42,955 nt of DNA, taken from positions 11,415 through 54,369 of the forward strand of contig MFHO01000004.1 in NCBI GenBank assembly GCA_001778635.1, written 5' to 3'. Source of the DNA: Candidatus Giovannonibacteria bacterium RIFCSPHIGHO2_02_FULL_45_13. Lineage in GTDB: Bacteria > Patescibacteriota > Minisyncoccia > UBA11713 > 2-01-FULL-45-33. The position numbers were made by a program, and so were the translations under genes. Shown here one piece after another: positions 1,992-42,286 of this stretch. The notes beneath the pieces are model-generated. The model made no database searches. It saw only the letters and a list, made by a program, of their open reading frames with translations, and was not told the DNA's origin. Position 1 is the stretch's first letter. Every line of letters starts with the position of its first letter.

Positions 1992-2447
1992 GTGGAAAAA
2001 TCTTCTTGGTTTGGGATTTTGAGCATCATGTTGGTGGTTCTGCTTGCTGGCACAATAGTGTTTTGCGTCGCATCAAAAGCCGCTGAAGAAAACCGCGAAT
2101 ATGCTTTTTGGTCAGATTTTAAAGACATAAATCGCGCTTCTGCGTCCATAATTTGCCGCCGCGAAGGGCCAACGCAGCTCGCAACAAAAGCTTACACAAA
2201 CCGCAAAGAGCTATGGGAAATAATCATCATCAACCTCAGTCACAAAGACATAGCAAGGCACGTTACTCAATTTTTAGGCTTCCAAAAGGGCGTTTTATTA
2301 AATTCGTTTGCCAGATTTGGCAATACATGGAAACGGTCCAGCGAAGTTACTGCTGAAGAATGGGGGGTTTTTATAAAAACGCACCCGATTTCGCCGGAAG
2401 AAGCGCAGTTTCTAAATATGTGCCTTGCGCAAAAACAGTTTACTTAA
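1992..2447 (+). CDS. hypothetical protein with N-terminal membrane anchor (151 aa, GTG start)
   Basis: ORF track entry. N-terminal hydrophobic helix WFGILSIMLVVLLAGTIVFCV. No family recognised. Confidence 0.45.
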   Translation: MEKSSWFGILSIMLVVLLAGTIVFCVASKAAEENREYAFWSDFKDINRASASIICRREGPTQLATKAYTNRKELWEIIIINLSHKDIARHVTQFLGFQKGVLLNSFARFGNTWKRSSEVTAEEWGVFIKTHPISPEEAQFLNMCLAQKQFT

Positions 2448-2482
2448 AACTATCGCCATCTAAAAAACGCTCAACGCGTTTT

Positions 2483-2571
2483 TTATTTTCCCTTTAAAAA
2501 CCCGAGCATTTTTTCCAGAGGCCAGGCGTTGATGATGTCATTTTTTCCGCCCAGCCGCGGCATGCTTGAAA
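2483..2571 (-). pseudogene. Relic of a PolX 3' end (last ~29 codons incl. stop, frameshifted)
   Basis: Minus-strand translation gives QACRGWAEK, then a 1-nt frameshift in an A6 run, then NDIINAWPLEKMLGFLKGK*. The real PolX C-terminus is QARRGWATKADIINAWPLEKMLGFLKKGGR*. Nt 2496-2539 match 3667-3710 at 41 of 44 positions. A TAG sits upstream at 2572-2574. Confidence 0.8.
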
Positions 2572-2607
2572 CTAGAAAGCTTGCTCATTTTGTGCTAAAT
2601 TTCTGTT

Positions 2608-3645
2608 ATGTCAGAAAGTTTTTATCAGACAGCAGATAAGATAACCCCCGAAACCACGGAAAACAAACAGGCAGCCGAGCAGAAAAGAATCTTGAATCAG
2701 TTAGTTGAAGACGAAATCAATGAATGGAAAAAGGGATGTTTAACGCCGGAACCGCCGCCCGAATTGTTAGGTCATTTTCTGCAAATACAAGCAAGAATTA
2801 AAGCAAGTTGGTTTTACTCAGAAATCGATGATCCATTTTACGCCTGGCACACTACTGCGTATAATTTTTTCTTCGATCGATTTAAATTATCTTCAAAATC
2901 AGTTGCAGAAATTGAGAAAAGCGGCCAAGAAGCCGATAAAGTATTGCGGAATTTGAATAGAGAGAAATCTATTTTAGAACTTATGGAAGCCCTAAATCCG
3001 CTACCCTTAAATTGTTTTATAAATCACGAGAGGTTATATGGAAAACTGCGAGAATCCGTAGACATCCCAGGCGATAATAATGCCGTTGTATCTTTGTCAG
3101 TAGAAAGAATGCCTGGTTCGGAAAAAAATCCAAACCTGCCCGATTACGCTATGCAGATTAAGATAATGGATAGTGATGGTGCGCTTCTGCACGATTTCGG
3201 CCGAGACGTTAAGCCGGGCACCTTGTTTTTGGCGTGGCACAGAGACCAAGCTGACATCCAACAAAAATATATTCATGTTGGCGTATTCCAAAAACAGGGT
3301 TATTATAACAAGGGTAATTTTCAAGAACGACTTTCGGACGAAGCAATTTTCGCTCTTTGTCACGAAATAGGACACAATCAACAATTTAGCGACCAAGCCT
3401 TTATTGAAAAAGCCAAGAAAGTTGAAGGTGAAAATTGGATGCCGGATTATTCTCCTTTGGCAGAACGGGATGCGTGGGTAAGGGGTATTAAATTACTTAG
3501 ATCTATCCGCACCAGAGAGGGAAACAGAGTATTCACAACAAAGATCAATAAAAAAATAAAAGAAACGATCACTGCTTGTCTTAGCACCAGAGACGACGAA
3601 ACATTCAAAAAGGGTTATAAAAAAGGCAAAACGCCCATTAAATAA
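2608..3645 (+). CDS. hypothetical protein with HExxH zincin-type motif (345 aa)
   Basis: Long ORF with motif FALCHEIGHNQQF and a downstream acidic candidate ligand (PLAERDAW). No family recognised. Its stop lies 2 nt from the convergent polX stop. Confidence 0.6.
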   Translation: MSESFYQTADKITPETTENKQAAEQKRILNQLVEDEINEWKKGCLTPEPPPELLGHFLQIQARIKASWFYSEIDDPFYAWHTTAYNFFFDRFKLSSKSVAEIEKSGQEADKVLRNLNREKSILELMEALNPLPLNCFINHERLYGKLRESVDIPGDNNAVVSLSVERMPGSEKNPNLPDYAMQIKIMDSDGALLHDFGRDVKPGTLFLAWHRDQADIQQKYIHVGVFQKQGYYNKGNFQERLSDEAIFALCHEIGHNQQFSDQAFIEKAKKVEGENWMPDYSPLAERDAWVRGIKLLRSIRTREGNRVFTTKINKKIKETITACLSTRDDETFKKGYKKGKTPIK

Positions 3646-3647
3646 AT

Positions 3648-5384
3648 CTAACGACCCCCTTTCTTCAAAAACCCTAGCATTTTTTCCAGAGGCCAGGCGT
3701 TAATTATGTCTGCTTTAGTTGCCCATCCTCTTCTGGCTTGGGAGATGCCGATTTCAAGAAATTTAAAATGCGAGGCGGAGTGAGCATCGGAATCAATGGA
3801 CATTTTTACTCCTGCTTCAACGCACTTGCGAATATATTCGTCTTTTATATCTAATCGGTCAGGATACGCATCAATCTCTAAGACCGTGCCCGTGCGCTTG
3901 GCGGTTTGGATTATTTCATCAATATCAATTTCAATTGGCTCACGCCTATTTATAATCCGGCCGGTCAGATGGAAAATAATGTCCACGTTCGGGTTTTCCA
4001 TCGCTTTTATAATCCTCCTTGTTTGCTCCGTCCGCGATAATTTAAAATGGCTGTGCACGGCGGCTCCAACAACATCCAACTTTTTTAAAACTTCATTTTT
4101 GATGTCCAGCGAACCATCCTTGCCGATGTTCACTTCCGCGCCCTTTAAAACACGAATCTTGAAACCTGAAGCGTGAAGCTTTTTATTAATTTTATCAATT
4201 TCGGCCATCTGCTTCAGCAGTTTTTTTTCATCCGATCCGCCGGTCATAGCCAAAGATTTCGTGTGGTCGGTTATCGCGATATATTCCAATCCCGCTTCAT
4301 GCGCGGCTTTGGTCATTGCCTCAATAGAATCTTCCCCATCTGTCCAATTTGTTTGTGTTTGCAAATCACCTTTTAAATCTCCGTAGCCAATTAATTTCGG
4401 AAGCTTGCGAGTTTTGGCTAATTCCAGCTCGCCTGTATTTTCTCTCATCTCCGGTTCAATGTAATTAAGACCCAGCGCTTTATAAATTTCCTCCTCGGTG
4501 CGGCCAGCGACTTTCTTTTTTCTGCGAAATAGCCCATATTCATTCAACTTCCATCCTTTCTTGATCGCCATCTCGCGAAGCGCTATATTGTGATCTTTTG
4601 AACCGGTAAAATAATTAAGCGCGGCGCCATACGATTCTTTGGGCACAACGCGCAGGTCAGCGTCCAAACCATTCTTGAGTTTCACCATTGTTTTTGTTCC
4701 CCCTTTTGCGTAGACGTGCGCAATGAATGGCAAATCCACGAACCTATCCATTACTTTCTTCGGCGTCTTCGAGGTTGCCAAAATATCAATATCGCCGATG
4801 GTTTCTTTGCGTCGGCGCGTTGAGCCAGCAACTATGGCTTCCTTAACTTCAGGAAAGGCGCGGATCATTTTCTCCAAATTCCTGATTTCCGGCAAAATAA
4901 ATCCCAAAACCTGTCGGCCGCCCGATTTTTTCAAAAATTCAATCCCGCGCAAAATTTTATCTTCGGATTTTTGCCCAAACCTAGGTAATTTTCTAATTTT
5001 TTCCAACAGCGCTGCTTTTTCCAAATCTTTTAGGTTTTTTATTTTTAGTTTTTTATATAAAATTTTTATCATTTTCGGCCCCACGCCCTCTACCGCCGAA
5101 AGCTCCGAAATATTAACGGGAATTTTTCTCTTCAATTTTGCATATTCCGGAAAACGCCCCTTTTTTAAAAGAAGTTCGATGTGAAAAGCGATTCCTTTGC
5201 CCACCCCGGGAATTTTTAAAAGTTCTTTTGGGCCGTTCTCTTTATAAATATCTTTTACTTCCTTATTCAGCGCCTCAACTCCAAGCGCCGCCTTTTCATA
5301 GGCGCGCGGCTTGAACAAAACCCCCTCCATTTCATAAAGCTCCGCCATCTCCCGCAGGATTTTCGCAATTTCTTGATTAGACAT
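3648..5384 (-). CDS. polX: DNA polymerase X family protein with C-terminal PHP domain
   Basis: 578 aa. N-terminal Pol-beta-like HhH region (MSNQEIAKILREMAELYEMEG, GVGKGIA), nucleotidyltransferase motif GSTRRRKETIGDIDIL, and PHP-type motifs ITDHT, AVHSHF, DSDAHS. Confidence 0.92.
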   Translation of the reverse strand: MSNQEIAKILREMAELYEMEGVLFKPRAYEKAALGVEALNKEVKDIYKENGPKELLKIPGVGKGIAFHIELLLKKGRFPEYAKLKRKIPVNISELSAVEGVGPKMIKILYKKLKIKNLKDLEKAALLEKIRKLPRFGQKSEDKILRGIEFLKKSGGRQVLGFILPEIRNLEKMIRAFPEVKEAIVAGSTRRRKETIGDIDILATSKTPKKVMDRFVDLPFIAHVYAKGGTKTMVKLKNGLDADLRVVPKESYGAALNYFTGSKDHNIALREMAIKKGWKLNEYGLFRRKKKVAGRTEEEIYKALGLNYIEPEMRENTGELELAKTRKLPKLIGYGDLKGDLQTQTNWTDGEDSIEAMTKAAHEAGLEYIAITDHTKSLAMTGGSDEKKLLKQMAEIDKINKKLHASGFKIRVLKGAEVNIGKDGSLDIKNEVLKKLDVVGAAVHSHFKLSRTEQTRRIIKAMENPNVDIIFHLTGRIINRREPIEIDIDEIIQTAKRTGTVLEIDAYPDRLDIKDEYIRKCVEAGVKMSIDSDAHSASHFKFLEIGISQARRGWATKADIINAWPLEKMLGFLKKGGR

Positions 5385-5483
5385 AGTTGTATTTTAACAC
5401 TTTTTCTCCAGACTTGGCCGGGTTTTCCACCGATTATCCACAAAGCCCTCTTTTAACAATTATATTTCTGATATCATTGATTT

Positions 5484-5712
5484 GGGAGGACAAGCGACGT
5501 GCCGAGGCGTGCTGGCTTAGGTGCATCTATAGCCAAGCCGATCCGCCGCCGTGGGACCCCTGCACCCACTCATGCCGCAAAATAGATGATCGGGGTAAAA
5601 CGGGAAAGAATGCTTTAGCGCCCCGCATTGCGGGGTCACAACTTTCTCCGGTCTAGGGACAATCCCCCTTCCACTTATCCACAGCCTCTCCTTGAAGGGG
5701 CTGTTATTTTTT
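5484..5712 (+). ncRNA. candidate structured RNA ending in an intrinsic terminator (family not recognised)
   Basis: GC-rich block closed by GGGAGG (5484-5489) pairing with CCUUCC (5667-5672). Internal hairpins include CCCCGC-AUU-GCGGGG at 5621-5635. Followed by the terminator at 5682-5712. No credible ORF. Confidence 0.3.
5682..5712 (+). terminator. rho-independent terminator-like hairpin
   Basis: CAGCCUCU / AGGGGCUG 8-bp stem with a 6-nt loop, followed by TTATTTTTT. The T-run is on the plus strand only. Confidence 0.6.
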
Positions 5713-5740
5713 GAGACAATAAAATCAGGTAAATCTTTGG

Positions 5741-5854
5741 CTTTCCGCAAGGAAAACCTGGCGCTGGTAAGGGAGTGCACAACAAAGGGCTTGCTTTGAT
5801 AAGCAATCCAACGAGCTCCGTTCGAGCGTATATGTGCACACCCTTACTCGCACC
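5741..5854 (+). ncRNA. second candidate structured element (three-way junction-like)
   Basis: UUUCC-GCAA-GGAAA hairpin (GNRA loop on the plus strand). A 21-nt imperfect inverted repeat, 5760-5780 / 5834-5854 (17 WC + 1 GU), encloses two small hairpins (UUGCUU-UGAU-AAGCAA and GCUC-CGUUC-GAGC). Confidence 0.25.
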
Positions 5855-5892
5855 AAAATAGATCTCTATCAAAAAAATAAAAACCCAGTAAA

Positions 5893-5927
5893 AAACCCTT
5901 GGACAACGCGCCGAGGGTTTGTTTTTT
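5893..5927. terminator. bidirectional terminator hairpin
   Basis: AAACCCUUGG / CCGAGGGUUU 10-bp stem with A-run and T-run on both sides. It lies immediately after the stop of the minus-strand gene 5936-6592. Confidence 0.6.
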
Positions 5928-5935
5928 AGGGGAGG

Positions 5936-10477: not shown

Positions 10478-10516
10478 CTTGTCAATAGTGACAATTTTGA
10501 GTTGAAAAGTTAAGAT
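10478..10516 (+). promoter_or_regulatory. promoter with palindromic box upstream of hicB
   Basis: cTTGTCAATAGTGACA (palindrome TTGTCA-ATAG-TGACAA). TGACAA serves as -35, then a 16-nt spacer, then TAAGAT as -10, ending 6 nt before ATG 10523, which may give a leaderless mRNA. The identical 16-mer recurs at 11363-11378. Confidence 0.45.
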
Positions 10517-10522
10517 TTGGGC

Positions 10523-10747
10523 ATGACTTATAAATCAACAATAGTAATCAATAAAGAAAGCGAATGGTTCGTGGCTTATTCTTTGGAGTTGGGCGTCGCG
10601 AGTCAAGGAAAAACCATAGAGGAAGCACAAGCAAATTTGAAAGAAGCTATTGAACTTTATTTGGAGGACCAGCCAGTTTTGCGAAAAAAGCTTGCGTGTT
10701 CTAATGTTGCGCCGCTTGTTACTTCTCTAGAATTAAAGCACGTCTAA
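10523..10747 (+). CDS. hicB: HicB-family antitoxin
   Basis: MTYKSTIVINKESEWFVAYSLELGVASQGKTIEEAQANLKEAIELYLED is a UPF0150/HicB-like fold signature. Confidence 0.8.
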   Translation: MTYKSTIVINKESEWFVAYSLELGVASQGKTIEEAQANLKEAIELYLEDQPVLRKKLACSNVAPLVTSLELKHV

Positions 10748-10969
10748 AACTTTTTTGGCAAAGAGCTTATTAAAATTTTAAGCCGCGAGTTCGGCTTTTA
10801 TTTTGTTTCGCAAAAAGGCAGTCATGTGAAACTGCGAAGAAAAATTGGCAATAAAGCTTTTACAACCATCATACCGCCTCACAAAGAACTCGCTCCAGGA
10901 ACTTTCCGCGCGGCGCTAAAACTCGGCGGTTTAGAGGAAGACGAATTTTGGAAAGTAGTGAAAAAATAA
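10748..10969 (+). pseudogene. hicA: HicA-family toxin reading frame without its own start codon
   Basis: Open frame GKELIKILSREFGFYFVSQKGSHVKLRRKIGNKAFTTIIPPHKELAPGTFRAALKLGGLEEDEFW. It is in the same frame as hicB, separated only by TAA 10745-10747. No ATG/GTG/TTG is present near its 5' end. Confidence 0.7.
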
Positions 10970-15769: not shown

Positions 15770-15982
15770 ATGATTATATTTACTAACCATGCGCTGAAAA
15801 GAATGAGGGAAAGAAAGGTTTCGCGGGCGCAGGTTTTAGAGACAATTAAAAACCCGGAAATAGAAATAGTCGAAGATGGCAATATAAAGTTGGCGCGCCG
15901 CGGATTCGCGGGTAAATCATTAGAGGTCGCGATAGAAAATGGCGGAAACAAGACTATTGTGATAACATTATATTGGTTATGA
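15770..15982 (+). CDS. DUF4258-like putative toxin (second copy)
   Basis: IIFTNHALKRMRERKVSRAQVLETI shows the same motif as the 11415 gene. Confidence 0.7.
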   Translation: MIIFTNHALKRMRERKVSRAQVLETIKNPEIEIVEDGNIKLARRGFAGKSLEVAIENGGNKTIVITLYWL

Positions 15983-16188
15983 AAATACAATACGACAAAC
16001 AAGCCGATGCTTTATATATCTATATTGGCAAAGGCAAAATAAAAAAAACCATAAAAGCCGGCAAAAATACCCTTATTGATATGGGCGAAAAAGACCGGGT
16101 TTTGGGAGTTGAGTTTTATAAAATTTCTCGCTCTGTTCCAAAAGAACAACTACAAAGTATATCTGTGGAATTGCCGGTTTATGCTTAG
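15973..16188 (+). CDS. DUF2283-like putative antitoxin (second copy)
   Basis: IQYDKQADALYIYIG...LIDMGEKDRVLGVEF. Overlaps the upstream gene by 10 nt. Confidence 0.7.
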   Translation: MVMKIQYDKQADALYIYIGKGKIKKTIKAGKNTLIDMGEKDRVLGVEFYKISRSVPKEQLQSISVELPVYA

Positions 16189-17440: not shown

Positions 17441-18715
17441 ATGTTAGACCTAAAAAATTTCAATACGGCTTTGGAACAGCTTACGGCAGAAAAAGGCATT
17501 TCCAAGGAAAAGATTATGGAGGCGATTGATATGGCTTTGGCCGCGGCTTATAAGCGCGATTACGGAAAAAAAACGCAGGTTGTGCGCGCAAAGTTTGATC
17601 TGGCTACAGGCAAGGCGGAGTTTTGGCAGGTTAAAACCGTTGTGGACGAAACAATGATCAAGTCCGAGGAAGAAATTGCGGCGGAAGAAGCGGCAAAAGC
17701 AGCCGGAGGTTTTGATGCGCTAAGCGAGAAGCAAGAGGCTCGTGAGGCCGCCAGAGAAGCTTTGGGCGGCGAAACAGAAAGCTATGGCGAGGCTGGCGGC
17801 GAAACTGGCGAGATAAAAAAAGTCAGATTCAATCTGGATCGCCATATTATGCTGGATGAAGCTAAAAAAAATAAAAAGAGCGCCAAGCTTGGCGAAGAAT
17901 TAATTTTTCCTTTGGAGTCAAAAGAAGATTACGGGAGAATTGCCGCGCAAACTGCTAAGCAAGTGATTTTGCAAAGAGTCCGCGAAGCCGAGCGCGATTC
18001 CGTGTTTGATGAGTTTAAAGAAAAGGAAGGAGAAGTCGTTTCCGGCATAGTGCAGCGCATAGAGGGGCGTGCCGTTTTTCTGGATTTGGGAAGAACTATC
18101 GGTATCTTGCCGCCGGATGAACAAATAAGGGGCGAGCGATATCGCGTTGGAGAGAGAATTAAGACGCTGCTTTTGTCTGTTGAGAAATTGCCAAGAGGCC
18201 CGGGCATTTATCTTTCGAGATCGCATCCGCGGCTTGTTTTGAAGCTTTTTGAAATCGAGGTGCCGGAGATAGCTTCGGGGGTTGTTGAGATTAAGAACGT
18301 CGCGCGAGAGGCCGGAGCGCGCACAAAGATTGCGGTTGTTTCAAAAGAAGAGGGGATTGACCCGGTTGGATCCTGTGTTGGGCAAAGGGGCGTGCGCGTG
18401 ACCACGGTGATCGCCGAACTCGGAGGAGAAAAAGTAGATATCGTCCCTTGGTCGGAAGACAAAGAAAAATTCATAGCTAGCGCTGTTTCGCCCGCGAAAG
18501 TTTTGGAGGTGGACGTGGACGAGGCGAGAAAACACGCCAAGGTTACTGTTTCAGAAGATCAATTGTCTCTGGCGATCGGCAAAGGCGGGCAAAACGTGCG
18601 GCTGGCAGCAAAACTCACAGGCTATAAAATCGACATCCGTTCCCGCTCCGGCGAAACCGTTGCCGAAGCCACCTCCGAAGGCGAAGTGGTAGGCGAAGGG
18701 ATCGCGGGGGAGTAA
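17441..18715 (+). CDS. nusA: Transcription termination/antitermination factor NusA
   Basis: 424 aa with an N-terminal domain, S1 (GEVVSGIVQRIEGRAVFLDLG) and two KH domains (GACVGQRG-like VGSCVGQRGVR, AIGKGGQNVRLA). Contains an acidic insertion of roughly 60 aa after the NTD. Confidence 0.95.
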   Translation: MLDLKNFNTALEQLTAEKGISKEKIMEAIDMALAAAYKRDYGKKTQVVRAKFDLATGKAEFWQVKTVVDETMIKSEEEIAAEEAAKAAGGFDALSEKQEAREAAREALGGETESYGEAGGETGEIKKVRFNLDRHIMLDEAKKNKKSAKLGEELIFPLESKEDYGRIAAQTAKQVILQRVREAERDSVFDEFKEKEGEVVSGIVQRIEGRAVFLDLGRTIGILPPDEQIRGERYRVGERIKTLLLSVEKLPRGPGIYLSRSHPRLVLKLFEIEVPEIASGVVEIKNVAREAGARTKIAVVSKEEGIDPVGSCVGQRGVRVTTVIAELGGEKVDIVPWSEDKEKFIASAVSPAKVLEVDVDEARKHAKVTVSEDQLSLAIGKGGQNVRLAAKLTGYKIDIRSRSGETVAEATSEGEVVGEGIAGE

Positions 18716-18752: not shown

Positions 18753-19160
18753 ATGGCTAACCAAACTATTACTGGCCCAATAATTTCTTTATCGGAGGTG
18801 ATAAAATCTCGGGAGCCCAAATCTTTAACGGAACAAAGGCTGATTTCGCTCTTAACTAAAAGATTTGGTGATTTACAAATAATCTGGAATCCAAAAGCAT
18901 TTCGGGAAGGACTGAACAATCCAGAACTCCCTAGTAATATTCTTAAAAAACTGGATTCGTTGCTTTTGCTTGCTGAGACAATAGATTGGAAAATTTCAAA
19001 GCCGTTAAAAGACGAACTGGATTCTACAGTTGAAGATATAGAAACTTTCAATCCCTCATTTAGAATGCGCCTTAAAAAAGCTTCTGAAGAATTTAGAGCC
19101 GGTAAATTTATTGCCTTGGAGGCGTTGGAGAAAAAGTTCGGACTTACTAAAAAACATTGA
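18753..19160 (+). CDS. hypothetical protein, putative antitoxin partner of RelE
   Basis: 135-aa ORF directly upstream of the RelE/ParE gene, 5 nt apart. No family recognised. Confidence 0.45.
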   Translation: MANQTITGPIISLSEVIKSREPKSLTEQRLISLLTKRFGDLQIIWNPKAFREGLNNPELPSNILKKLDSLLLLAETIDWKISKPLKDELDSTVEDIETFNPSFRMRLKKASEEFRAGKFIALEALEKKFGLTKKH

Positions 19161-19164
19161 CTTT

Positions 19165-19416
19165 ATGAATGTCGCTCTTTCTCCGCAAGCCAGCGATTTT
19201 TTGAAGAAGTGCCCAATCAATTTACGAAAAAGAATTCTCAACAAAATAAAATTCTATGCTTCCGCTCCAGATCCGTTAGAATTTGCCGAACATCTCACTG
19301 ATGACTCGGAGGCGCCTTATCGTTATAGAATTGGCGATTGGCGGGTTAAGTTTGCGGTAGAAAACAACACAATTACAGTTAAACGAATTGGCCGCCGCGA
19401 CAAAATTTATGAATAG
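19165..19416 (+). CDS. relE: RelE/ParE-family toxin
   Basis: From the internal ATG at 19165: MNVALSPQASDFLKK...PYRYRIGDWRVKFAVENNTITVKRIGRRDKIY, the classic RelE/ParE C-terminal pattern. Confidence 0.8.
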   Translation: MNVALSPQASDFLKKCPINLRKRILNKIKFYASAPDPLEFAEHLTDDSEAPYRYRIGDWRVKFAVENNTITVKRIGRRDKIYE

Positions 19417-19440: not shown

Positions 19441-19483
19441 CTCCGAAGGCGAAGTGGTGGGCGAAGGGATTGTGGCGGAGTAG
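19441..19483 (+). pseudogene. Relic copy of the nusA 3' end (last 13 codons + stop)
   Basis: The 43 nt match nusA 18673-18715 at 38 of 43 positions. It encodes SEGEVVGEGIVAE*, versus SEGEVVGEGIAGE* in nusA. Confidence 0.8.
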
Positions 19484-19485
19484 CT

Positions 19486-23319: not shown

Positions 23320-23380
23320 ATACCTCCTGTGTGTTTTCTAAAAACATAATAGCACACAGGGTGCTATTATGTCAAGCGTG

Positions 23381-23452
23381 GGAGGCATAGGGGATTCGAA
23401 CCCCTACCGACAGTGCCACAGACTATCGTGCTGCCATTACACCAATGCCTCC
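23381..23452 (-). tRNA. tRNA-His (GUG) with encoded G-1
   Basis: Reverse complement G-GAGGCAU-UG-GUGUAAUGGCAGCAC-G-AUAGU-CUGUGGC-ACUGU-CGGU-AGGGG-UUCGAAU-CCCCU-AUGCCUC-C. Cloverleaf with a G-1:C73 pair and anticodon GUG. Confidence 0.93.
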
Positions 23453-23937
23453 GTAAATTTTTCTCGTTCTTCCTTATAATGATGCACAAGGACATGACAA
23501 TTATTGCAGAGCCAGGCAAGATTGTCTAATTTATTATTTTTCCTATCTTTATCTATATGATGCACAGCCAATACTCTAACATCTTTTATTTTACACAAGA
23601 CACATACTGGTTTAACTTTGCTTTTTAAAATATTTTTCCGATATGTGTATTCGCCGTGTTTCCAATTCGGATGTCTCTCGCCTATGTACTCGATAGAATT
23701 TCTCCAAATAGCCTGACAGGATTTCCCGCAAAAATATTTTTTACTTTTAGAATGCTTTAAAGCCTTTAGCTGTTTATAAACATTTTCCCCGCAAATAAAA
23801 CAGGAAATAATTTTGCCGGTCTTAAAGGCCTCGTCTCTACACTTGCGCGAACAATATTTTCCTCCTCCGACTTTCACCCAATATGGCTTTATCGTAAATT
23901 TTTTACTGCAATTTAAGCAGGTTTTTATCAGGGGCAT
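23437..23937 (-). CDS. HNH endonuclease with N-terminal zinc-ribbon repeats
   Basis: VLAVHHIDKDRKNNKLDNLAWLCNNCHVLVHH (HNH motif) plus several CxxC pairs. Its last 16 nt (TEALV*) overlap the 5' end of tRNA-His. Confidence 0.85.
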   Translation of the reverse strand: MPLIKTCLNCSKKFTIKPYWVKVGGGKYCSRKCRDEAFKTGKIISCFICGENVYKQLKALKHSKSKKYFCGKSCQAIWRNSIEYIGERHPNWKHGEYTYRKNILKSKVKPVCVLCKIKDVRVLAVHHIDKDRKNNKLDNLAWLCNNCHVLVHHYKEEREKFTEALV

Positions 23938-23997
23938 ACTTGTAGTAAATGTATACCTCCAAATTAAATAAGTAAATGCTACGGTTTCTGAAACTTA

Positions 23998-29804: not shown

Positions 29805-29818
29805 TTGTTTTACCTCTT

Positions 29819-29843
29819 CACTTAGACGTCCGACGTCTAAGTG
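29819..29843. repeat. REP-like palindrome, copy 1
   Basis: CACTTAGACGTC-C-GACGTCTAAGTG, with perfect 12-nt arms. Confidence 0.85.
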
Positions 29844-29860
29844 TGCTAGCATTAGCTATT

Positions 29861-30505
29861 ATGAGAAAGACCGTATTTGCAAACGGCGAATTTTATCACG
29901 TTTATAATCGTGGCACAGATAAGCGTATTGTGTTTGCTAATAATTATGACTTCCAACGTTTTCTGCAAAGCATGGAAGAGTTTAATTCTGTAGATCCAAT
30001 AGGCAGTATTTATCAAAATTCTTTTTGCGAACCCCAACTTAGACGTCCGACGTCTAAGTTGGTGAATATTGTGTGTTATTGTCTTAATCCGAATCATTAT
30101 CATATGATTCTTCAGCAACGCGTTAGCGGCGGGATAAGCGAGTTTATGAAAAGATTGGGCGGTGGATATACAAAACATTTTAATTTTAAACATAAAAGAA
30201 GCGGCGTACTTTTTCAGGGTAAATTTAAAGCCAATCACATTGATTCCAATGAGTATTTGCTGCACGCAAGCGCATACGTCAATTTAAATGGGTTGGCGCA
30301 CAAATTGAAAAACAATCAATTTTATTCTAGTTGGGAAGAGTTTGTAAACAAAAATTCTAAAGGTGCTTGTAAAAAAGATATAATTCTTGATCAGTTTAAA
30401 GATGTAAATGAATATAGAATGTTTGTGCAAGGCGCTCTCAAAAAGATTTTGGCTAGAAAGGAGTTATTGAAAGAAATGGAGGATTTGTTTGCTTTAGAAA
30501 ATTAA
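29861..30505 (+). CDS. REP-associated tyrosine transposase (RAYT / IS200-like Y1 HUH transposase)
   Basis: FYHVYNRG..., HUH motif NPNHYHMIL, and catalytic-Tyr region HASAYVNLNGLAHK. ATG at 29861 (the ORF track starts at GTG 29843). Confidence 0.8.
   Translation: MRKTVFANGEFYHVYNRGTDKRIVFANNYDFQRFLQSMEEFNSVDPIGSIYQNSFCEPQLRRPTSKLVNIVCYCLNPNHYHMILQQRVSGGISEFMKRLGGGYTKHFNFKHKRSGVLFQGKFKANHIDSNEYLLHASAYVNLNGLAHKLKNNQFYSSWEEFVNKNSKGACKKDIILDQFKDVNEYRMFVQGALKKILARKELLKEMEDLFALEN
30034..30062. repeat. REP-like palindrome, copy 2 (inside the RAYT coding sequence)
   Basis: CCAACTTAGACGTC-C-GACGTCTAAGTTGG with 14-nt arms. Translated in frame as PQLRRPTSKLV. Confidence 0.85.
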
Positions 30506-30508
30506 AAT

Positions 30509-30539
30509 CCCCACTTAGATGTCGGACGTCTAAGTGGGG
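30509..30539. repeat. REP-like palindrome, copy 3
   Basis: CCCCACTTAGATGTC-G-GACGTCTAAGTGGGG with 15-nt arms and one G-U. It starts 4 nt after the RAYT stop. Confidence 0.85.
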
Positions 30540-39333: not shown

Positions 39334-41817
39334 ATGGCTCAAAAAGACAGCGAAACTAACTCCCAAAAAGTGGGGGTAGGGGGGGCAATAGGAACTGTAT
39401 CTCCGCGAGAGATTGTTTTGGAGATGCAGGAGTCGTATTTGGATTACGCGATGTCGGTTATTGTCGCGCGCGCCCTGCCGGATGTCCGTGACGGTCTAAA
39501 GCCTGTGCACCGCAGGATTCTGTTTGCGATGAATGAGATGGGTCTTACGCATAGCGCCAAAACAAAAAAATCCGCAAATGTGGTCGGCGAGGTGCTTGGG
39601 AAATATCATCCGCACGGAGATACGGCGGTTTACGATTCTTTGGTAAGAATGGCCCAAGATTTTTCGCTGCGTTACCCGCTGATTGAAGGGCAAGGAAACT
39701 TTGGATCCATTGACGGAGATTCGGCTGCCGCAATGCGTTATACCGAGGCAAGAATGTCTGCGATTGCCTCCGAAATGTTAAAGGACATTGAAAAAGAAAC
39801 CGTTAATTTTGTTTCGAATTACGATAATACAAAAAAAGAACCCGTTGTTTTGCCTGCGGCAATGCCGCAGCTGCTCCTAAATGGTTCTATGGGTATCGCG
39901 GTTGGAATGGCGACTAACATCCCGCCGCATAATCTTACGGAAGTCACGGACGCGACTTTGCATTTGATGAACCATCCAAAGGCGACGGTGGAGGAGCTTA
40001 CAGAATTTGTAAAAGGCCCGGATTTCCCAACCGGCGGAATAATTTTTAATAAAAAAGAAATTTTACAGGCTTACGCAACAGGCCGCGGAGGCGTGGTGAA
40101 CAGAGGAGAGGCAGAAATTTTAGAACGGAAAAACGGAGAGTGGCAGATTGTCATCACGTCCATTCCTTATCTTGTGAATAAATCCGAGCTTATCGTAAAA
40201 ATGGCCGACTTGGTGCACTTAAAAAAATTGGAAGGGATAAGGGACATACGAGACGAGTCAGACAAAGAAGGGCTTCGCATCGCGATTGATTTGAAAAGGG
40301 ATTCTTATCCGCAGAAAGTTTTAAACAATCTTTATAAACACACGGATCTGGAGCGGACGTACCATTTTAACGTGATCGCGTTGGTTGACGGCGGACTGCA
40401 GCCGAAAACGCTTTCTTTAAAAAGCATTTTAGAAGAGTTCGTTAAACACCGGCGCATTATCGTGGAGCGAAGAGCGCGGTTTGATTTGGCGCGCGCCGAG
40501 GAGCGGGAGCACATTCTTCTGGGATTGAAAAAGGCTTTGGAACATATTGACGCGGTTATAAAGACAATAAAAAGCTCGGATGACAGAGAAGATGCCCATA
40601 AAAATTTGATCAAAAAGTTTGATTTGTCGGACAAACAGGCAGCGGCGATTTTAGAGATGCGCCTTCAGACTTTGGCAGGACTTGAGCGGCAAAAAATTGA
40701 AGATGAACTTAAGGAAAAACAAAAACTCATCAAAGAATTGAAAGTGCTGTTGGGCGATCCGAAAAAAATTGACGAAGTGATTAAAAACGAACTTTCCGAG
40801 ATAAAAAAGAAATACGGAGACGAAAGGAAAACTAAAGTTATTTCTGGCGCTGCCAAAATTATCTCGGCAGAGGACTTGGTTGCCGAGGAAGAAACTATTC
40901 TTATATTAACCCAAGGAGGATATGTAAAGCGCATAAAGCCTGATGAATACAGAGTGCAGAAGCGCGGCGGGAAGGGAGTGATCGGGGTTACGACCAAAGA
41001 TGAAGATTTTGCATATGAATTTATCGGAGGAAATACGCACGATGATTTGCTCTTTTTTACGAATTTAGGAAAAGTTTATCAGACAAAAATGTATGAAATT
41101 CCGGAGGGCACAAGGCAGGCGAAGGGCAAGGCGATTGCAAACTTTCTTTCCTTGGCTGTGGATGAAAAAGTGACTTCGGTATTGCCAGTGCCCAAAACAA
41201 AGAAAGGGCAGTCTAGTTACGTGATCCTGTCCACTCAAAAAGGAGTTACCAAAAAAGTAAATTCCAAAGATTTTGAGGACGTTAGGCATTCCGGAATCCG
41301 CGCTATTAATTTGCAAAAAGGTGACACCTTGCGTTTTGCCCGCGTGGTTATGTCGGGAGAAGAAATTGTGCTTTCATCAAAATTGGGGCAGGCCATTCGT
41401 TTTAAAGAAAAAGACATCCGAGCCATGGGCAGGACGGCGCAGGGCATTCGCGGGATGAGGCTTAAGAGTAAAGACGAACTGGTTGGAATGGATATACTCC
41501 CGCAATCTGCGAAAAAATTGGAAATTTTGTCGGTTTCGCAATTGGGTTACGGCAAGAAAACGCTGATTTCGCAATATCGTTTGCAAAAGCGCGGCGGCTC
41601 TGGAGTTAAAACCTGCAAGGTTACATCCAAGACCGGAAATTTGGTTTCCGTACAGGTTGTTAAAGACGATCAGGAAGAAATTATCGCAATTTCAAAAAAA
41701 GGCCAGGTCATCCGCGCGCCGCTTTCGCAAATCCCCTCGCTTTCCCGCGCCACCCAAGGCGTTAGGATAATGAAATTAAACTCCGGCGATTCCGTCGCCT
41801 CGGTGACGCTGCTGTAA
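39334..41817 (+). CDS. gyrA: DNA gyrase subunit A
   Basis: [31 protein letters not shown], active-site [10 protein letters not shown], and C-terminal beta-pinwheel repeats. Confidence 0.97.
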
Positions 41818-41882: not shown

Positions 41883-41981
41883 ATGTACAGCGCAGTCATG
41901 AATAGTACAAAGGTCATCAATTTGTACCCAAGAGCAATGTTGAATATGCGGTACGGATGTGTTAGGCTTTGTTTATGCTAA
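41883..41981 (+). CDS. small ORF, 32 aa (below ORF-track cutoff)
   Basis: AGGAG lies 11 nt upstream of the ATG. MYSAVMNSTKVINLYPRAMLNMRYGCVRLCLC. Its stop overlaps the next ATG (ATGCTAA). Confidence 0.3.
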   Translation: MYSAVMNSTKVINLYPRAMLNMRYGCVRLCLC

Positions 41982-42166
41982 GCGATTCGCAATTGAAGTT
42001 TCTATCGGATGTGTCGTTGATGACAGGACAAGTTTGTTTGGCATCGTTAGTGATTCCATACTTTATTTCTCAATTCAATGCAAGCTTTTTATTGCTCGGT
42101 ATTATATTAACAGCAAGTTCTTGGTTAGTCGGCTTGCTTATTATCAGAAACGTTAAAAATATTTAA
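41975..42166 (+). CDS. small 2-TM membrane protein (63 aa)
   Basis: MLSDSQLKFLSDVSLMTGQVCLASLVIPYF...LLLGIILTASSWLVGLLII. Weakly similar to the 6786-6962 product. Confidence 0.45.
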   Translation: MLSDSQLKFLSDVSLMTGQVCLASLVIPYFISQFNASFLLLGIILTASSWLVGLLIIRNVKNI

Positions 42167-42258: not shown

Positions 42259-42262
42259 CCTC

Positions 42263-42286
42263 GTCGCCTCGGTAACGTTGCTGTAA
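42263..42286 (+). pseudogene. Relic copy of the gyrA 3' end (last 7 codons + stop)
   Basis: gtcgcctcggtaacgttgctgtaa matches gyrA 41794-41817 (gtcgcctcggtgacgctgctgtaa) at 22 of 24 positions. Both encode VASVTLL*. Confidence 0.7.

Follow-up and report, generated by a model that had tools for sequence, protein, structure and literature searches.

A small cassette in the polX 3′ end of a Candidatus Giovannonibacteria genome probably supplied its own replacement tail

Introduction

Bacteria of the Candidate Phyla Radiation (CPR) have tiny genomes with few recognisable mobile elements, and their gene gain is therefore poorly understood. We analysed a stretch of 42,955 nucleotides (the window; plus and minus refer to its strands) of Candidatus Giovannonibacteria, a CPR bacterium from groundwater. 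In this window the gene polX, encoding a family X DNA polymerase, is followed at some distance by a second, decayed copy of its own last codons. An earlier note on this DNA had described the second copy as a relic of the polX 3′ end beyond a single-gene insert. How did the end of this gene come to be present twice, with one foreign-looking gene in between? The reading that we consider likely is that a small cassette with its own polX 3′ fragment integrated here and supplied polX with a replacement tail. Integration into the 3′ end of a gene by means of a carried replacement tail is of an already known kind; the novelty lies in its miniature form without a recombinase, found in a CPR bacterium, and in its recurrence at polX and other gene tails.

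A diverged copy of the polX tail downstream of polX

The best local nucleotide alignment of the two copies pairs positions 2492-2539 with 3663-3710, with 44 of 48 positions identical and 4 mismatches. As proposed by the earlier note, this alignment was compared with shuffled controls. The pair scored 76, against a maximum of 28 in 1000 shuffles; the rest of the window, cut into 1194 chunks of 140 nt from both strands, likewise reached 28 at most. A direct-repeat listing of the whole window recovered the same pair independently (family D3), with a start-to-start spacing of 1171 nt. The 44-nt core that had been claimed earlier (2496-2539 versus 3667-3710) indeed differs at 3 positions. Inside the 48-nt repeat lies a block in which all 26 positions are identical (Table 1). 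Upstream of the core the peptides are alike, with QACRGWAEK in the relic and QARRGWATK in polX, whereas only 24 of 39 bases agree, so that the two copies use different codons, as the note had described. At the protein level the repeat extends to about 86-93 nt.

Read on the minus strand from 2568 to 2483, the relic gives QACRGWAEK, a frameshift and then NDIINAWPLEKMLGFLKGK, while the polX tail from 3740 to 3648 gives QARRGWATKADIINAWPLEKMLGFLKKGGR (tail peptides are written here up to their stop codon). This reading was borne out, as were the 1-nt frameshift in a run of six adenines and the upstream TAG, which lies at 2574-2572 on the minus strand, one codon upstream of the relic. The relic was also recognised by a hidden Markov model (HMM) of the polX C-terminus, with a score of 39.6 bits. 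In relatives, the segment does not belong to any longer conserved open reading frame (ORF).

Between the copies we found one long ORF only, at 2608-3645 on the plus strand and hence antisense to polX, in agreement with the earlier description. Its stop codon ends at 3645 and the polX stop codon occupies 3648-3650, which leaves a gap of 2 nt. The note had concluded that there is no room for a terminator between these convergent genes. This holds for the intergenic space, but not overall: a weak terminator-like hairpin for polX, followed by a T-run, is located on the minus strand at 3636-3624, within the 3′ coding end of the convergent gene.

The same polX with identical neighbours is present on MFHD01000024.1 (GCA_001778465.1), on MFIB01000035.1 and on a JGI contig from Rifle (JGI 3300002502). 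The occurrence of this arrangement in three assemblies implies that the join is not peculiar to one of them.

Empty sites in relatives and a reciprocal mosaic

Scanning one genome per species, we obtained 80 polX loci from Giovannonibacteria and other Parcubacteria. In Giovannonibacteria RIFCSPLOWO2_02_FULL_45_28 (locus L005), polX is 81% identical to polX of the window. It ends in DDIINAWPLEKMLGLLKGK (…GLLKGK); next come the hairpin AAAAACGCGTTGAGCGTTTTTT and a homologue (65%) of orf151. This tail, terminator and neighbour are those that follow the relic in the window. The earlier note had suggested looking for a relative in which polX is directly followed by the gene at 1992-2447, and L005 is such a relative, with the same terminator. 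The site is also unoccupied in L006, L064 and L214, where polX is directly followed by an ABC-transporter gene, without insert.

A five-way alignment was used to compare the two copies with L005 and with a second occurrence of the cassette (contig L001, copy B; see below). Upstream of the 26-nt block, the working copy matches L005 at 32 of 39 positions and the relic at 21 of 39. The opposite was found against L001 copy B, with 31 of 39 matches for the relic and 23 of 39 for working polX. Downstream of the block, through the terminator and beyond, the relic matches L005 at 50 of 61 positions and the working copy at 30 of 75. The working polX tail is hence native upstream of the block and foreign downstream of it (…KKGGR). 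The relic shows the reciprocal pattern, foreign upstream of the block and native downstream (…KGK, terminator and orf151). The view of the relic as a displaced polX end thus stood, with the refinement that old-tail sequence makes up only part of it: its 5′ third would derive from the cassette and its remainder would be native, which makes it a hybrid. Because the frameshift sits in the cassette-derived part, it may predate the integration.

The cargo gene and its homologues

The protein encoded between the two copies contains the motif HEIGH at residues 252-256, and ER(D/N)AW.RG about 30 residues downstream. Both motifs are invariant in the three full-length homologues, and this HExxH…E layout suggests a zinc-dependent hydrolase. 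No family was assigned to the HExxH protein in Pfam, PHROGs or NCBIfam (E ≤ 0.1-1), and a profile search gave no sequence match in PDB. An AlphaFold2 model from a 2-sequence alignment was unusable (predicted local distance difference test, pLDDT, of 38). Comparison of the gene with that of its homologue P0001 yielded a ratio of nonsynonymous to synonymous substitutions (dN/dS) of about 0.18, which indicates purifying selection on the protein. The G+C content is 39.6% in the HExxH gene and 43-44% in the flanking genes.

P0001 (65% identical) was the one homologue among 5.8 billion proteins in a word-indexed search. A profile search that covered 1.8 billion representatives exhaustively added only one fragment and a distant relative, P0003 (E = 3.6e-13), and a profile scan of genome contigs with the HExxH alignment returned no further copies of the cassette. 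P0001 is located on a Logan contig of 2,059 nt (L001), where its gene lies between two polX-tail fragments in direct orientation. Copy B adjoins the stop of the gene and reads QARRGWAEKKNVINTRPVDEMLKLLK in frame, through a run of seven adenines; a stop codon precedes it, and no polX body is attached. Copy A adjoins the upstream region of the gene and reads QARRGWAEKK…, shifted in the same A-run. Both copies share their starting boundary, CAAGC, with the relic in the window, and both are of the GCCGCGGCTGGGCGGA type, like the 5′ part of that relic. The 20 nt upstream of the relic and those upstream of copy A are identical at 11 of 20 positions. Since L001 shares these boundaries, the junction between the upstream region of the cassette and the polX-like fragment would be a conserved internal feature of the cassette. 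We reconstructed the cassette-borne fragment as QACRGWAEK(N)DIINAWPLEKMLGFLKKGGR, also given as QACRGWAEKNDIINAWPLEKMLGFLKKGGR; its codons resemble, by eye, those of the polX tails of L006, L064, L213 and L214.

The earlier note had asked whether the inserted ORF travels with gene-end relics. Its sole close homologue does, with a polX-tail fragment on either side. The existence of a polX 3′-end relic beyond a single-gene insert is thereby supported from three sides: the alignment statistics, the empty site of L005 and the flanks of L001.

Beyond the second polX-tail fragment, L001 carries an ORF of 267 aa (1105-2040) with trypsin-like motifs (SAGHV…GCSGSP) and no family match. Its orientation, antisense relative to polX, points to a possible second cassette stacked at the same site, as far as this contig of 2,059 nt extends.

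Other inserts at the polX 3′ end

Three further loci (L213, L215 and L216) represent a related lineage whose polX is 84-85% identical to that of the window; each comes from a different sample, including the Rifle sample already named. Directly after polX, and antisense to it, they carry a gene for a Lys/Arg-rich basic peptide of 38 aa and a gene for a B12-binding radical-SAM enzyme. Together these genes resemble the pairs that make ribosomally synthesised and post-translationally modified peptides. An 85-nt direct repeat derived from the polX tail brackets this insert in L213 and L216. In L213 the repeat comprises 1848-1932 and 3598-3682, with 76 of 85 positions identical; its relic RGWAEKKDIINAWPLEKMLGFLK is in frame, and the repeat runs 13 nt beyond the stop codon. 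The L215 contig stops inside the radical-SAM gene, before any relic position. Outside the polX part, the radical-SAM and HExxH cassettes share nothing (best local score of 14).

With the HMM of the polX C-terminus, relics downstream of polX were found in 4 of the 80 species-representative loci (L027, L034, L065 and L072), and also in two metagenome loci (L137 and L189). The insert of L065 measures about 290 nt and has a small antisense ORF and a degenerate relic. Among related genomes, the polX tail has thus received no fewer than four unrelated cargoes, namely the HExxH gene, the radical-SAM gene with its peptide, a small ORF and a structured RNA. In the HExxH and radical-SAM cassettes, and in all but one of the five RNA-element inserts, the start of the duplication falls within about 10 nt of the RRGW codons; in the exception, L137, it falls at EFGIA, a few codons upstream of RRGW. 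These comparisons indicate that the polX 3′ end is probably a recurrent landing site for tiny cassettes without an integrase of their own.

Similar scars at nusA and gyrA

Further scars were sought in the window with the whole-window direct-repeat listing and a rescan for C-termini. Two more essential genes of the window, nusA and gyrA, bear the same scar (Table 1). Judged from the repeats and the ORFs between them, both duplications appear to have the same architecture as the one at polX, and the nusA cargo looks toxin-antitoxin-like. The region after nusA is highly variable in Giovannonibacteria (L208-L211). Nothing lies between nusA and an H+-pyrophosphatase gene in L210, while this position is taken by a HicAB pair with four small genes in L209 and by an ORF of 118 aa in L211. 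None of the nusA relatives L208-L211 contained a nusA-tail relic.

A structured RNA element in other Parcubacteria

In L027, L034, L072, L137 and L189, the DNA from the polX stop codon to the relic contains a conserved element of about 90-145 nt with the order GGGGUCGGG-hairpin-GUGUAGGAAAA…UUAGAAACCGAGGGUUUCUAAGGAGC…GCGAC. Over all copies the element measures about 90-190 nt, and it has no match in Rfam. A 21-nt pattern derived from it occurred in at least 120 metagenome stretches and returned nothing in viral contigs. A covariance model (R1) gave, among the matches listed, 99 copies with E < 1e-5, spread over 86 loci; single contigs carried as many as four copies. Two hairpins of R1 covary: 98.5% of the cells are paired, 127 cells are compensatory, and none of 500 shuffles reached the observed values.

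The element occurs in two settings. In type B, the 3′ end of a gene or tRNA, including the stop codon, is followed by a spacer, an antisense segment, a purine-rich linker, the core and the relic. The antisense segment (guide) of 10-18 nt is complementary to the first bases of the duplicated tail, and the relic starts exactly at the end of the core. In 24 instances, the guide:target helix comprises 285 Watson-Crick and 28 G·U pairs, alongside 4 A·C pairs and 18 other mismatches. The large excess of G·U over A·C favours pairing that takes place in RNA, on the sense strand. Targets of type B include polX, GAPDH, a histidine kinase, a protein with the tail EWWYWMK, and the T-loop of several tRNAs. 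Within 2.5 kb of the RNA elements there was no recurrent recombinase, and no associated protein was found. Among the relatives of L027, L034 and L072, none was close enough to serve as an empty-site comparator.

In type A, this core directly precedes the start codons of ribosomal-protein genes and other highly expressed genes, where it looks like a portable 5′ leader. Several of these copies (L089, L092, L093, L100, L109, L116, L118 and others) have an extra 3′ domain, GGUGUUAGC…GCGUGCCGCGACC. They sit before the ATG of rpsL, rpsQ, MreB/DnaK-like and other genes, with conserved flanks …CCCAUAUCGGAGA and …GGUAUUACCACUAUG.

The reverse strand of L203 (6270-6580) has a perfect 70-nt direct repeat that flanks one RNA core beside tRNA-Met. 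The repeat consists of the 3′ end of the tRNA from the T-loop onward, a 32-nt spacer, the guide and the linker. Hence, the duplicated unit can include the guide itself, which would agree with the integration of a stretch longer than one unit, or with an intermediate that is circular.

The RNA element is absent from our window, where R1 scored at most 11 bits, and the window cassette has no antisense-guide complementarity above that of shuffles. The insert at polX is thus not of the RNA-element type. The two nevertheless share a principle: both carry a copy of the target tail, replace the tail and leave a relic.

Integration model and alternatives

Under the reading that we consider likely, the mobile cassette would have measured about 1.17 kb and consisted of the HExxH gene, its own upstream region and a polX 3′ copy of about 93 nt, taken from another Giovannonibacterium. 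One reciprocal crossover of the Campbell type would have occurred in the chromosomal polX tail, within the 26-nt identity inside the 48-nt near-identical core. The two products would resemble attL and attR. The polX frame would have stayed open, with its last codons (…KKGGR) from the cassette. The native …KGK codons, the terminator and orf151 would have been displaced by 1171 nt, behind the QACRGWAEK stub, where the old codons would be untranslated and decaying. Given the two reciprocal hybrids, a single crossover with a cassette-borne tail copy is the simplest process. The cassette presumably passed through a circular or otherwise recombination-ready intermediate, and a circle could arise by recombination between the two repeats of an earlier host. 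The crossover might be catalysed by host homologous recombination on the short identity, or by a recombinase or nuclease acting in trans. We regard these two routes as about equally probable. The near-constant start at the RRGW codons favours some site preference and hence the trans-acting enzyme, whereas the polX, nusA and gyrA repeats have no obvious motif in common (judged by eye only), which argues against one site-specific enzyme and favours the homology route.

Apart from this missing motif, several observations weigh against such an integration. No integrase or recombinase gene is present in the cassette or among the ORFs of the 43-kb window, where the only mobile-element genes found are those of an IS200-like Y1 transposase and an HNH endonuclease. 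The ends of the cassette have no terminal inverted repeats and no attC-like palindrome (2400-3800 examined), and no free or circular form of the cassette was seen. A stretch of 26-48 nt is short for RecA-dependent recombination, yet near the known lower limit. Moreover, recombination between the two repeat copies would recreate exactly the structure of L005, so that L005 could in principle be a revertant, and an empty site is no proof that the site was never occupied. Finally, the gene of P0003 (L085-L087) lies wedged between pheS and pheT, all three on one strand and separated by gaps of 1 and 12 nt. It has neither a relic nor a duplicated gene end, which implies that the HExxH family does not always travel this way.

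The closest formal parallel is prophage e14, which enters the 3′ end of icd in Escherichia coli and leaves the C-terminal pseudogene icdC at its far end (PMC13626634). That source, citing Hill et al. (1989), states that recombination between the two icd copies regenerates a chimeric gene (PMC13626634). As in e14, and likewise in phage 21, the element at polX would supply the replacement tail, the gene stays functional and the native tail becomes a pseudogene at the far end. However, e14 is about 15 kb long, has its own integrase and excises upon SOS induction, whereas the polX insert has 1.17 kb, one cargo gene and no recombinase. The polX site also differs from that of e14 in taking unrelated tiny cargo in relatives. 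Of the marks of att-type integration, the polX insert displays flanking direct repeats of the target, a replacement tail with reciprocal hybrids and an unoccupied site in relatives, but no integrase, as its only ORF encodes the HExxH protein without family match.

Some genomic islands and integrative elements target tRNA genes or the final bases of protein genes, as exemplified by SGI1 at trmE and by tycheposons at tRNA genes. Their repeats are usually att cores of 15-25 bp bound by a dedicated tyrosine recombinase. Cargo-only satellites without recombinase are known for tycheposons, and arrays can build up at one site. The polX cassette resembles these elements in its direct repeats of the target 3′ end, which include the stop codon, and L001 resembles two successive cassettes. 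It differs in its longer homology of about 85-93 nt, which resembles a whole gene tail at the protein level, in its lack of a recombinase, and in its CPR host. Integron cassettes, too, are single-gene units of about 1 kb without recombinase that are thought to be mobile as small circles, and often carry toxin-antitoxin cargo. In contrast to them, the polX cassette has its own upstream region and would recombine with the tail of a host gene instead of attI.

Might the HExxH protein itself be a nuclease that cuts cassette-free polX tails, after which repair copies the gene together with a cut-resistant tail? Such homing would suit a single, orphan, selfish-looking ORF, and the wedged position of P0003 resembles that of an intergenic invader. 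The start of the polX duplications near the same RRGW codons (about 10 nt) across cassettes, L137 excepted, would also agree with it. In fungal mitochondria, a gene can be followed by one or more small selfish ORFs and a duplicated C-terminal fragment, as described for cob and atp6, and these partial duplications beside endonuclease ORFs match the architecture at polX (PMC6279837). The fungal cargo is, however, a recognisable LAGLIDADG or GIY-YIG endonuclease, whereas the cargo at polX has no detectable nuclease domain: Pfam, PHROGs, NCBIfam and PDB gave no LAGLIDADG, GIY-YIG, HNH, His-Cys, PD-(D/E)xK or EDxHD domain, and neither these searches nor the AlphaFold model (pLDDT of 38) allowed a nuclease family or fold to be assigned. 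HExxH…E is a peptidase-type motif and not a known motif of homing endonucleases. In addition, the sister cassettes carry a radical-SAM enzyme, a ParE toxin, a 65-aa membrane-like ORF or RNA only, none of which is a nuclease. We therefore consider homing improbable. A remnant of a larger prophage or island, brought into polX by an integrase of its own and later stripped of almost all DNA between its att sites, would leave an arrangement formally identical to that of e14, icd and icdC (PMC13626634). Yet the same 1.1-kb unit with the same inner boundaries (upstream region and CAAGC…) is found in L001, in a different organism. The inserts at polX, nusA, gyrA, L213, L065 and the RNA-element loci all measure 0.12-1.7 kb and contain no integrase fragment. 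Independent decay to near nothing, with both repeats kept every time, would be unlikely, and this makes the remnant quite improbable as well.

A purely local origin, by tandem duplication of the polX tail with later divergence and gene arrival, or by repeated gene conversion between the copies, could account for the block of 26 identical positions among neighbouring repeats. It predicts, however, that both copies derive from the native tail, and the mosaic disagrees. The 5′ part of the relic matches L001 at 31 of 39 positions against 24 of 39 for its own polX, and is by eye of the GCCGCGGCTGGGCGGA type seen in L213 and L214. The 3′ part of the working tail is unlike L005, whereas the 3′ part of the relic and the following 60 nt match it. 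A local origin is thus very unlikely. Still less can be said for an assembly chimera, in which the 48-nt repeat joined contigs of two co-occurring strains. The window does come from a metagenome-assembled genome, and a related strain with another cassette at polX is present in the same Rifle sample (JGI 3300002502). But the same join recurs in three records of 30-65 kb (two metagenome-assembled genomes at NCBI and the JGI contig), and similar structures were found in independent assemblies from other projects and assemblers (L213, L216 and L001; L215 ends before the relic). Both junctions are, moreover, backed by coherent genes and the native terminator, so that we hold a chimera to be extremely unlikely.

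Two further candidates were rejected. Programmed -1 frameshifting to read the relic, prompted by the sequence A AAA AAG at the shift in the L072 relic, fails because the direction of the shift differs in L001 copy A, because L027, L034 and L213 need no shift, and because stop codons precede the relics. A diversity-generating retroelement does not fit, as the mismatches between the copies are not adenine-specific. A transposon or insertion sequence is contradicted by the lack of terminal inverted repeats and of a transposase in the insert, and by a duplication that is 48-90 nt long and diverged instead of short and identical. An integron gene cassette would have an attC-like inverted repeat, but neither end has one (2400-3800), and the 43-kb window contains no integron integrase or attI.

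A wider, tentative and rather doubtful possibility is that Parcubacteria host a general, hitherto undescribed class of "gene-tail cassettes", which would include the guide-bearing RNA elements and have the HExxH, nusA-ParE and gyrA inserts as members. Such cassettes would measure 0.12-1.7 kb and lack a recombinase; each would bring along a duplicate of the final 25-90 nt of a conserved host gene or tRNA. The carried copy would recombine into the 3′ end of that gene, replace the tail and leave a relic. The smallest members would have no protein cargo and consist of a structured RNA of about 90-190 nt, whose 5′ 10-18 nt can base-pair, G·U included, with the beginning of the duplicated target. 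If this is true, an RNA that specifies its own landing site by base pairing would be a new kind of RNA-specified insertion. The gene-tail route escapes searches based on integrases or transposases. Its signature, a short diverged copy of the last codons of a gene within a few kb downstream, can readily be searched for across whole genomes; it also dates the cassettes and shows which flank is foreign.

Features of the window

The coordinates of the features discussed here are compiled in Table 1.

Table 1. Features at the polX locus, at other loci of the window, and copies of the RNA element in other contigs (positions in the window unless a locus is named; tail peptides end at their stop codon).
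Feature	Position	Strand	Description
polX	3648..5384	minus	578 aa, intact; Pfam HHH_8, DNA_pol_B_thumb, PHP; family X polymerase with PHP; tail apparently cassette-supplied
Working polX tail	3648..3740	minus	QARRGWATKADIINAWPLEKMLGFLKKGGR; apparently native 5′ of the 26-nt block and cassette-derived 3′ of it
26-nt block, working copy	3676..3701	minus	putative crossover interval
26-nt block, relic copy	2505..2530	minus	putative crossover interval
Relic	2483..2568	minus	QACRGWAEK, frameshift, NDIINAWPLEKMLGFLKGK; 5′ part apparently cassette-type, 3′ part apparently native tail
A6 run (T6 on plus strand)	2541..2546	minus	carries the 1-nt (-1) frameshift of the relic
Cassette-contributed DNA (putative)	2531..3675		about 1.15 kb; new end of polX tail, HExxH gene, 2572-2607, 5′ third of relic
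Presumed promoter region of HExxH gene	2572-2607		36 nt upstream of the gene
HExxH cargo gene	2608..3645	plus	345 aa, orphan, convergent with polX; sole long ORF between the copies
Native polX terminator hairpin	2461..2485		from terminator scan; now apart from polX; also usable by orf151 from the other side
orf151	1992..2447	plus	probable original convergent neighbour of polX; 65%-identical homologue directly after polX in L005
nusA	17441-18715		last 14 codons and stop (18673-18715) recur at 19441-19485, 42 nt, 90%, SEGEVVGEGIVAE
nusA insert	18753-19160; 19111-19416		768-nt unit; 135-aa ORF and ParE-family toxin gene, respectively, in sense orientation
gyrA	39334-41817		last 8 codons and stop (41793-41817) recur at 42262-42286, 23/25, VASVTLL
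gyrA insert	41969-42166		about 445 nt; 65-aa membrane-like ORF at the position given
IS200-like Y1 transposase ORF	29843-30505		interrupts type IV pilus gene cluster
HNH endonuclease ORF	23437-23937		166 aa; its end falls in or at tRNA-His (23380-23451), one of five clustered tRNA genes
RNA element, L027	5183-5271
RNA element, L034	6751-6848
RNA element, L072	6764-6856
RNA element, L189	2953-3043
RNA element, L137	1040-1139
RNA element, further copies			many of L088-L207

The Y1 transposase ORF is bracketed by a 33-nt palindromic repeat, ACTTAGACGTCCGACGTCTAAGT, with copies at 29813, 30030 and 30506 (29813-30538). The combination suggests an IS200/IS605- or REP/RAYT-type element. The HNH ORF may encode a free-standing homing endonuclease.

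Small toxin-antitoxin-like pairs lie between housekeeping genes, namely DUF4258/DUF2283 (15770-16188) and HicA with its neighbour (about 10500-10960), and this stretch of the genome is dense in two-gene modules of that kind.

Upstream of polX lies a non-coding stretch of 550 nt (5385-5935). It had no Rfam match and folded no better than shuffles, and it contains two perfect DnaA-box nonamers, TTATCCACA, at 5434 and 5675. Further perfect nonamers are found at 23995 and 27261, and with one mismatch allowed the window has 17 such sites, compared with 7.9 expected.

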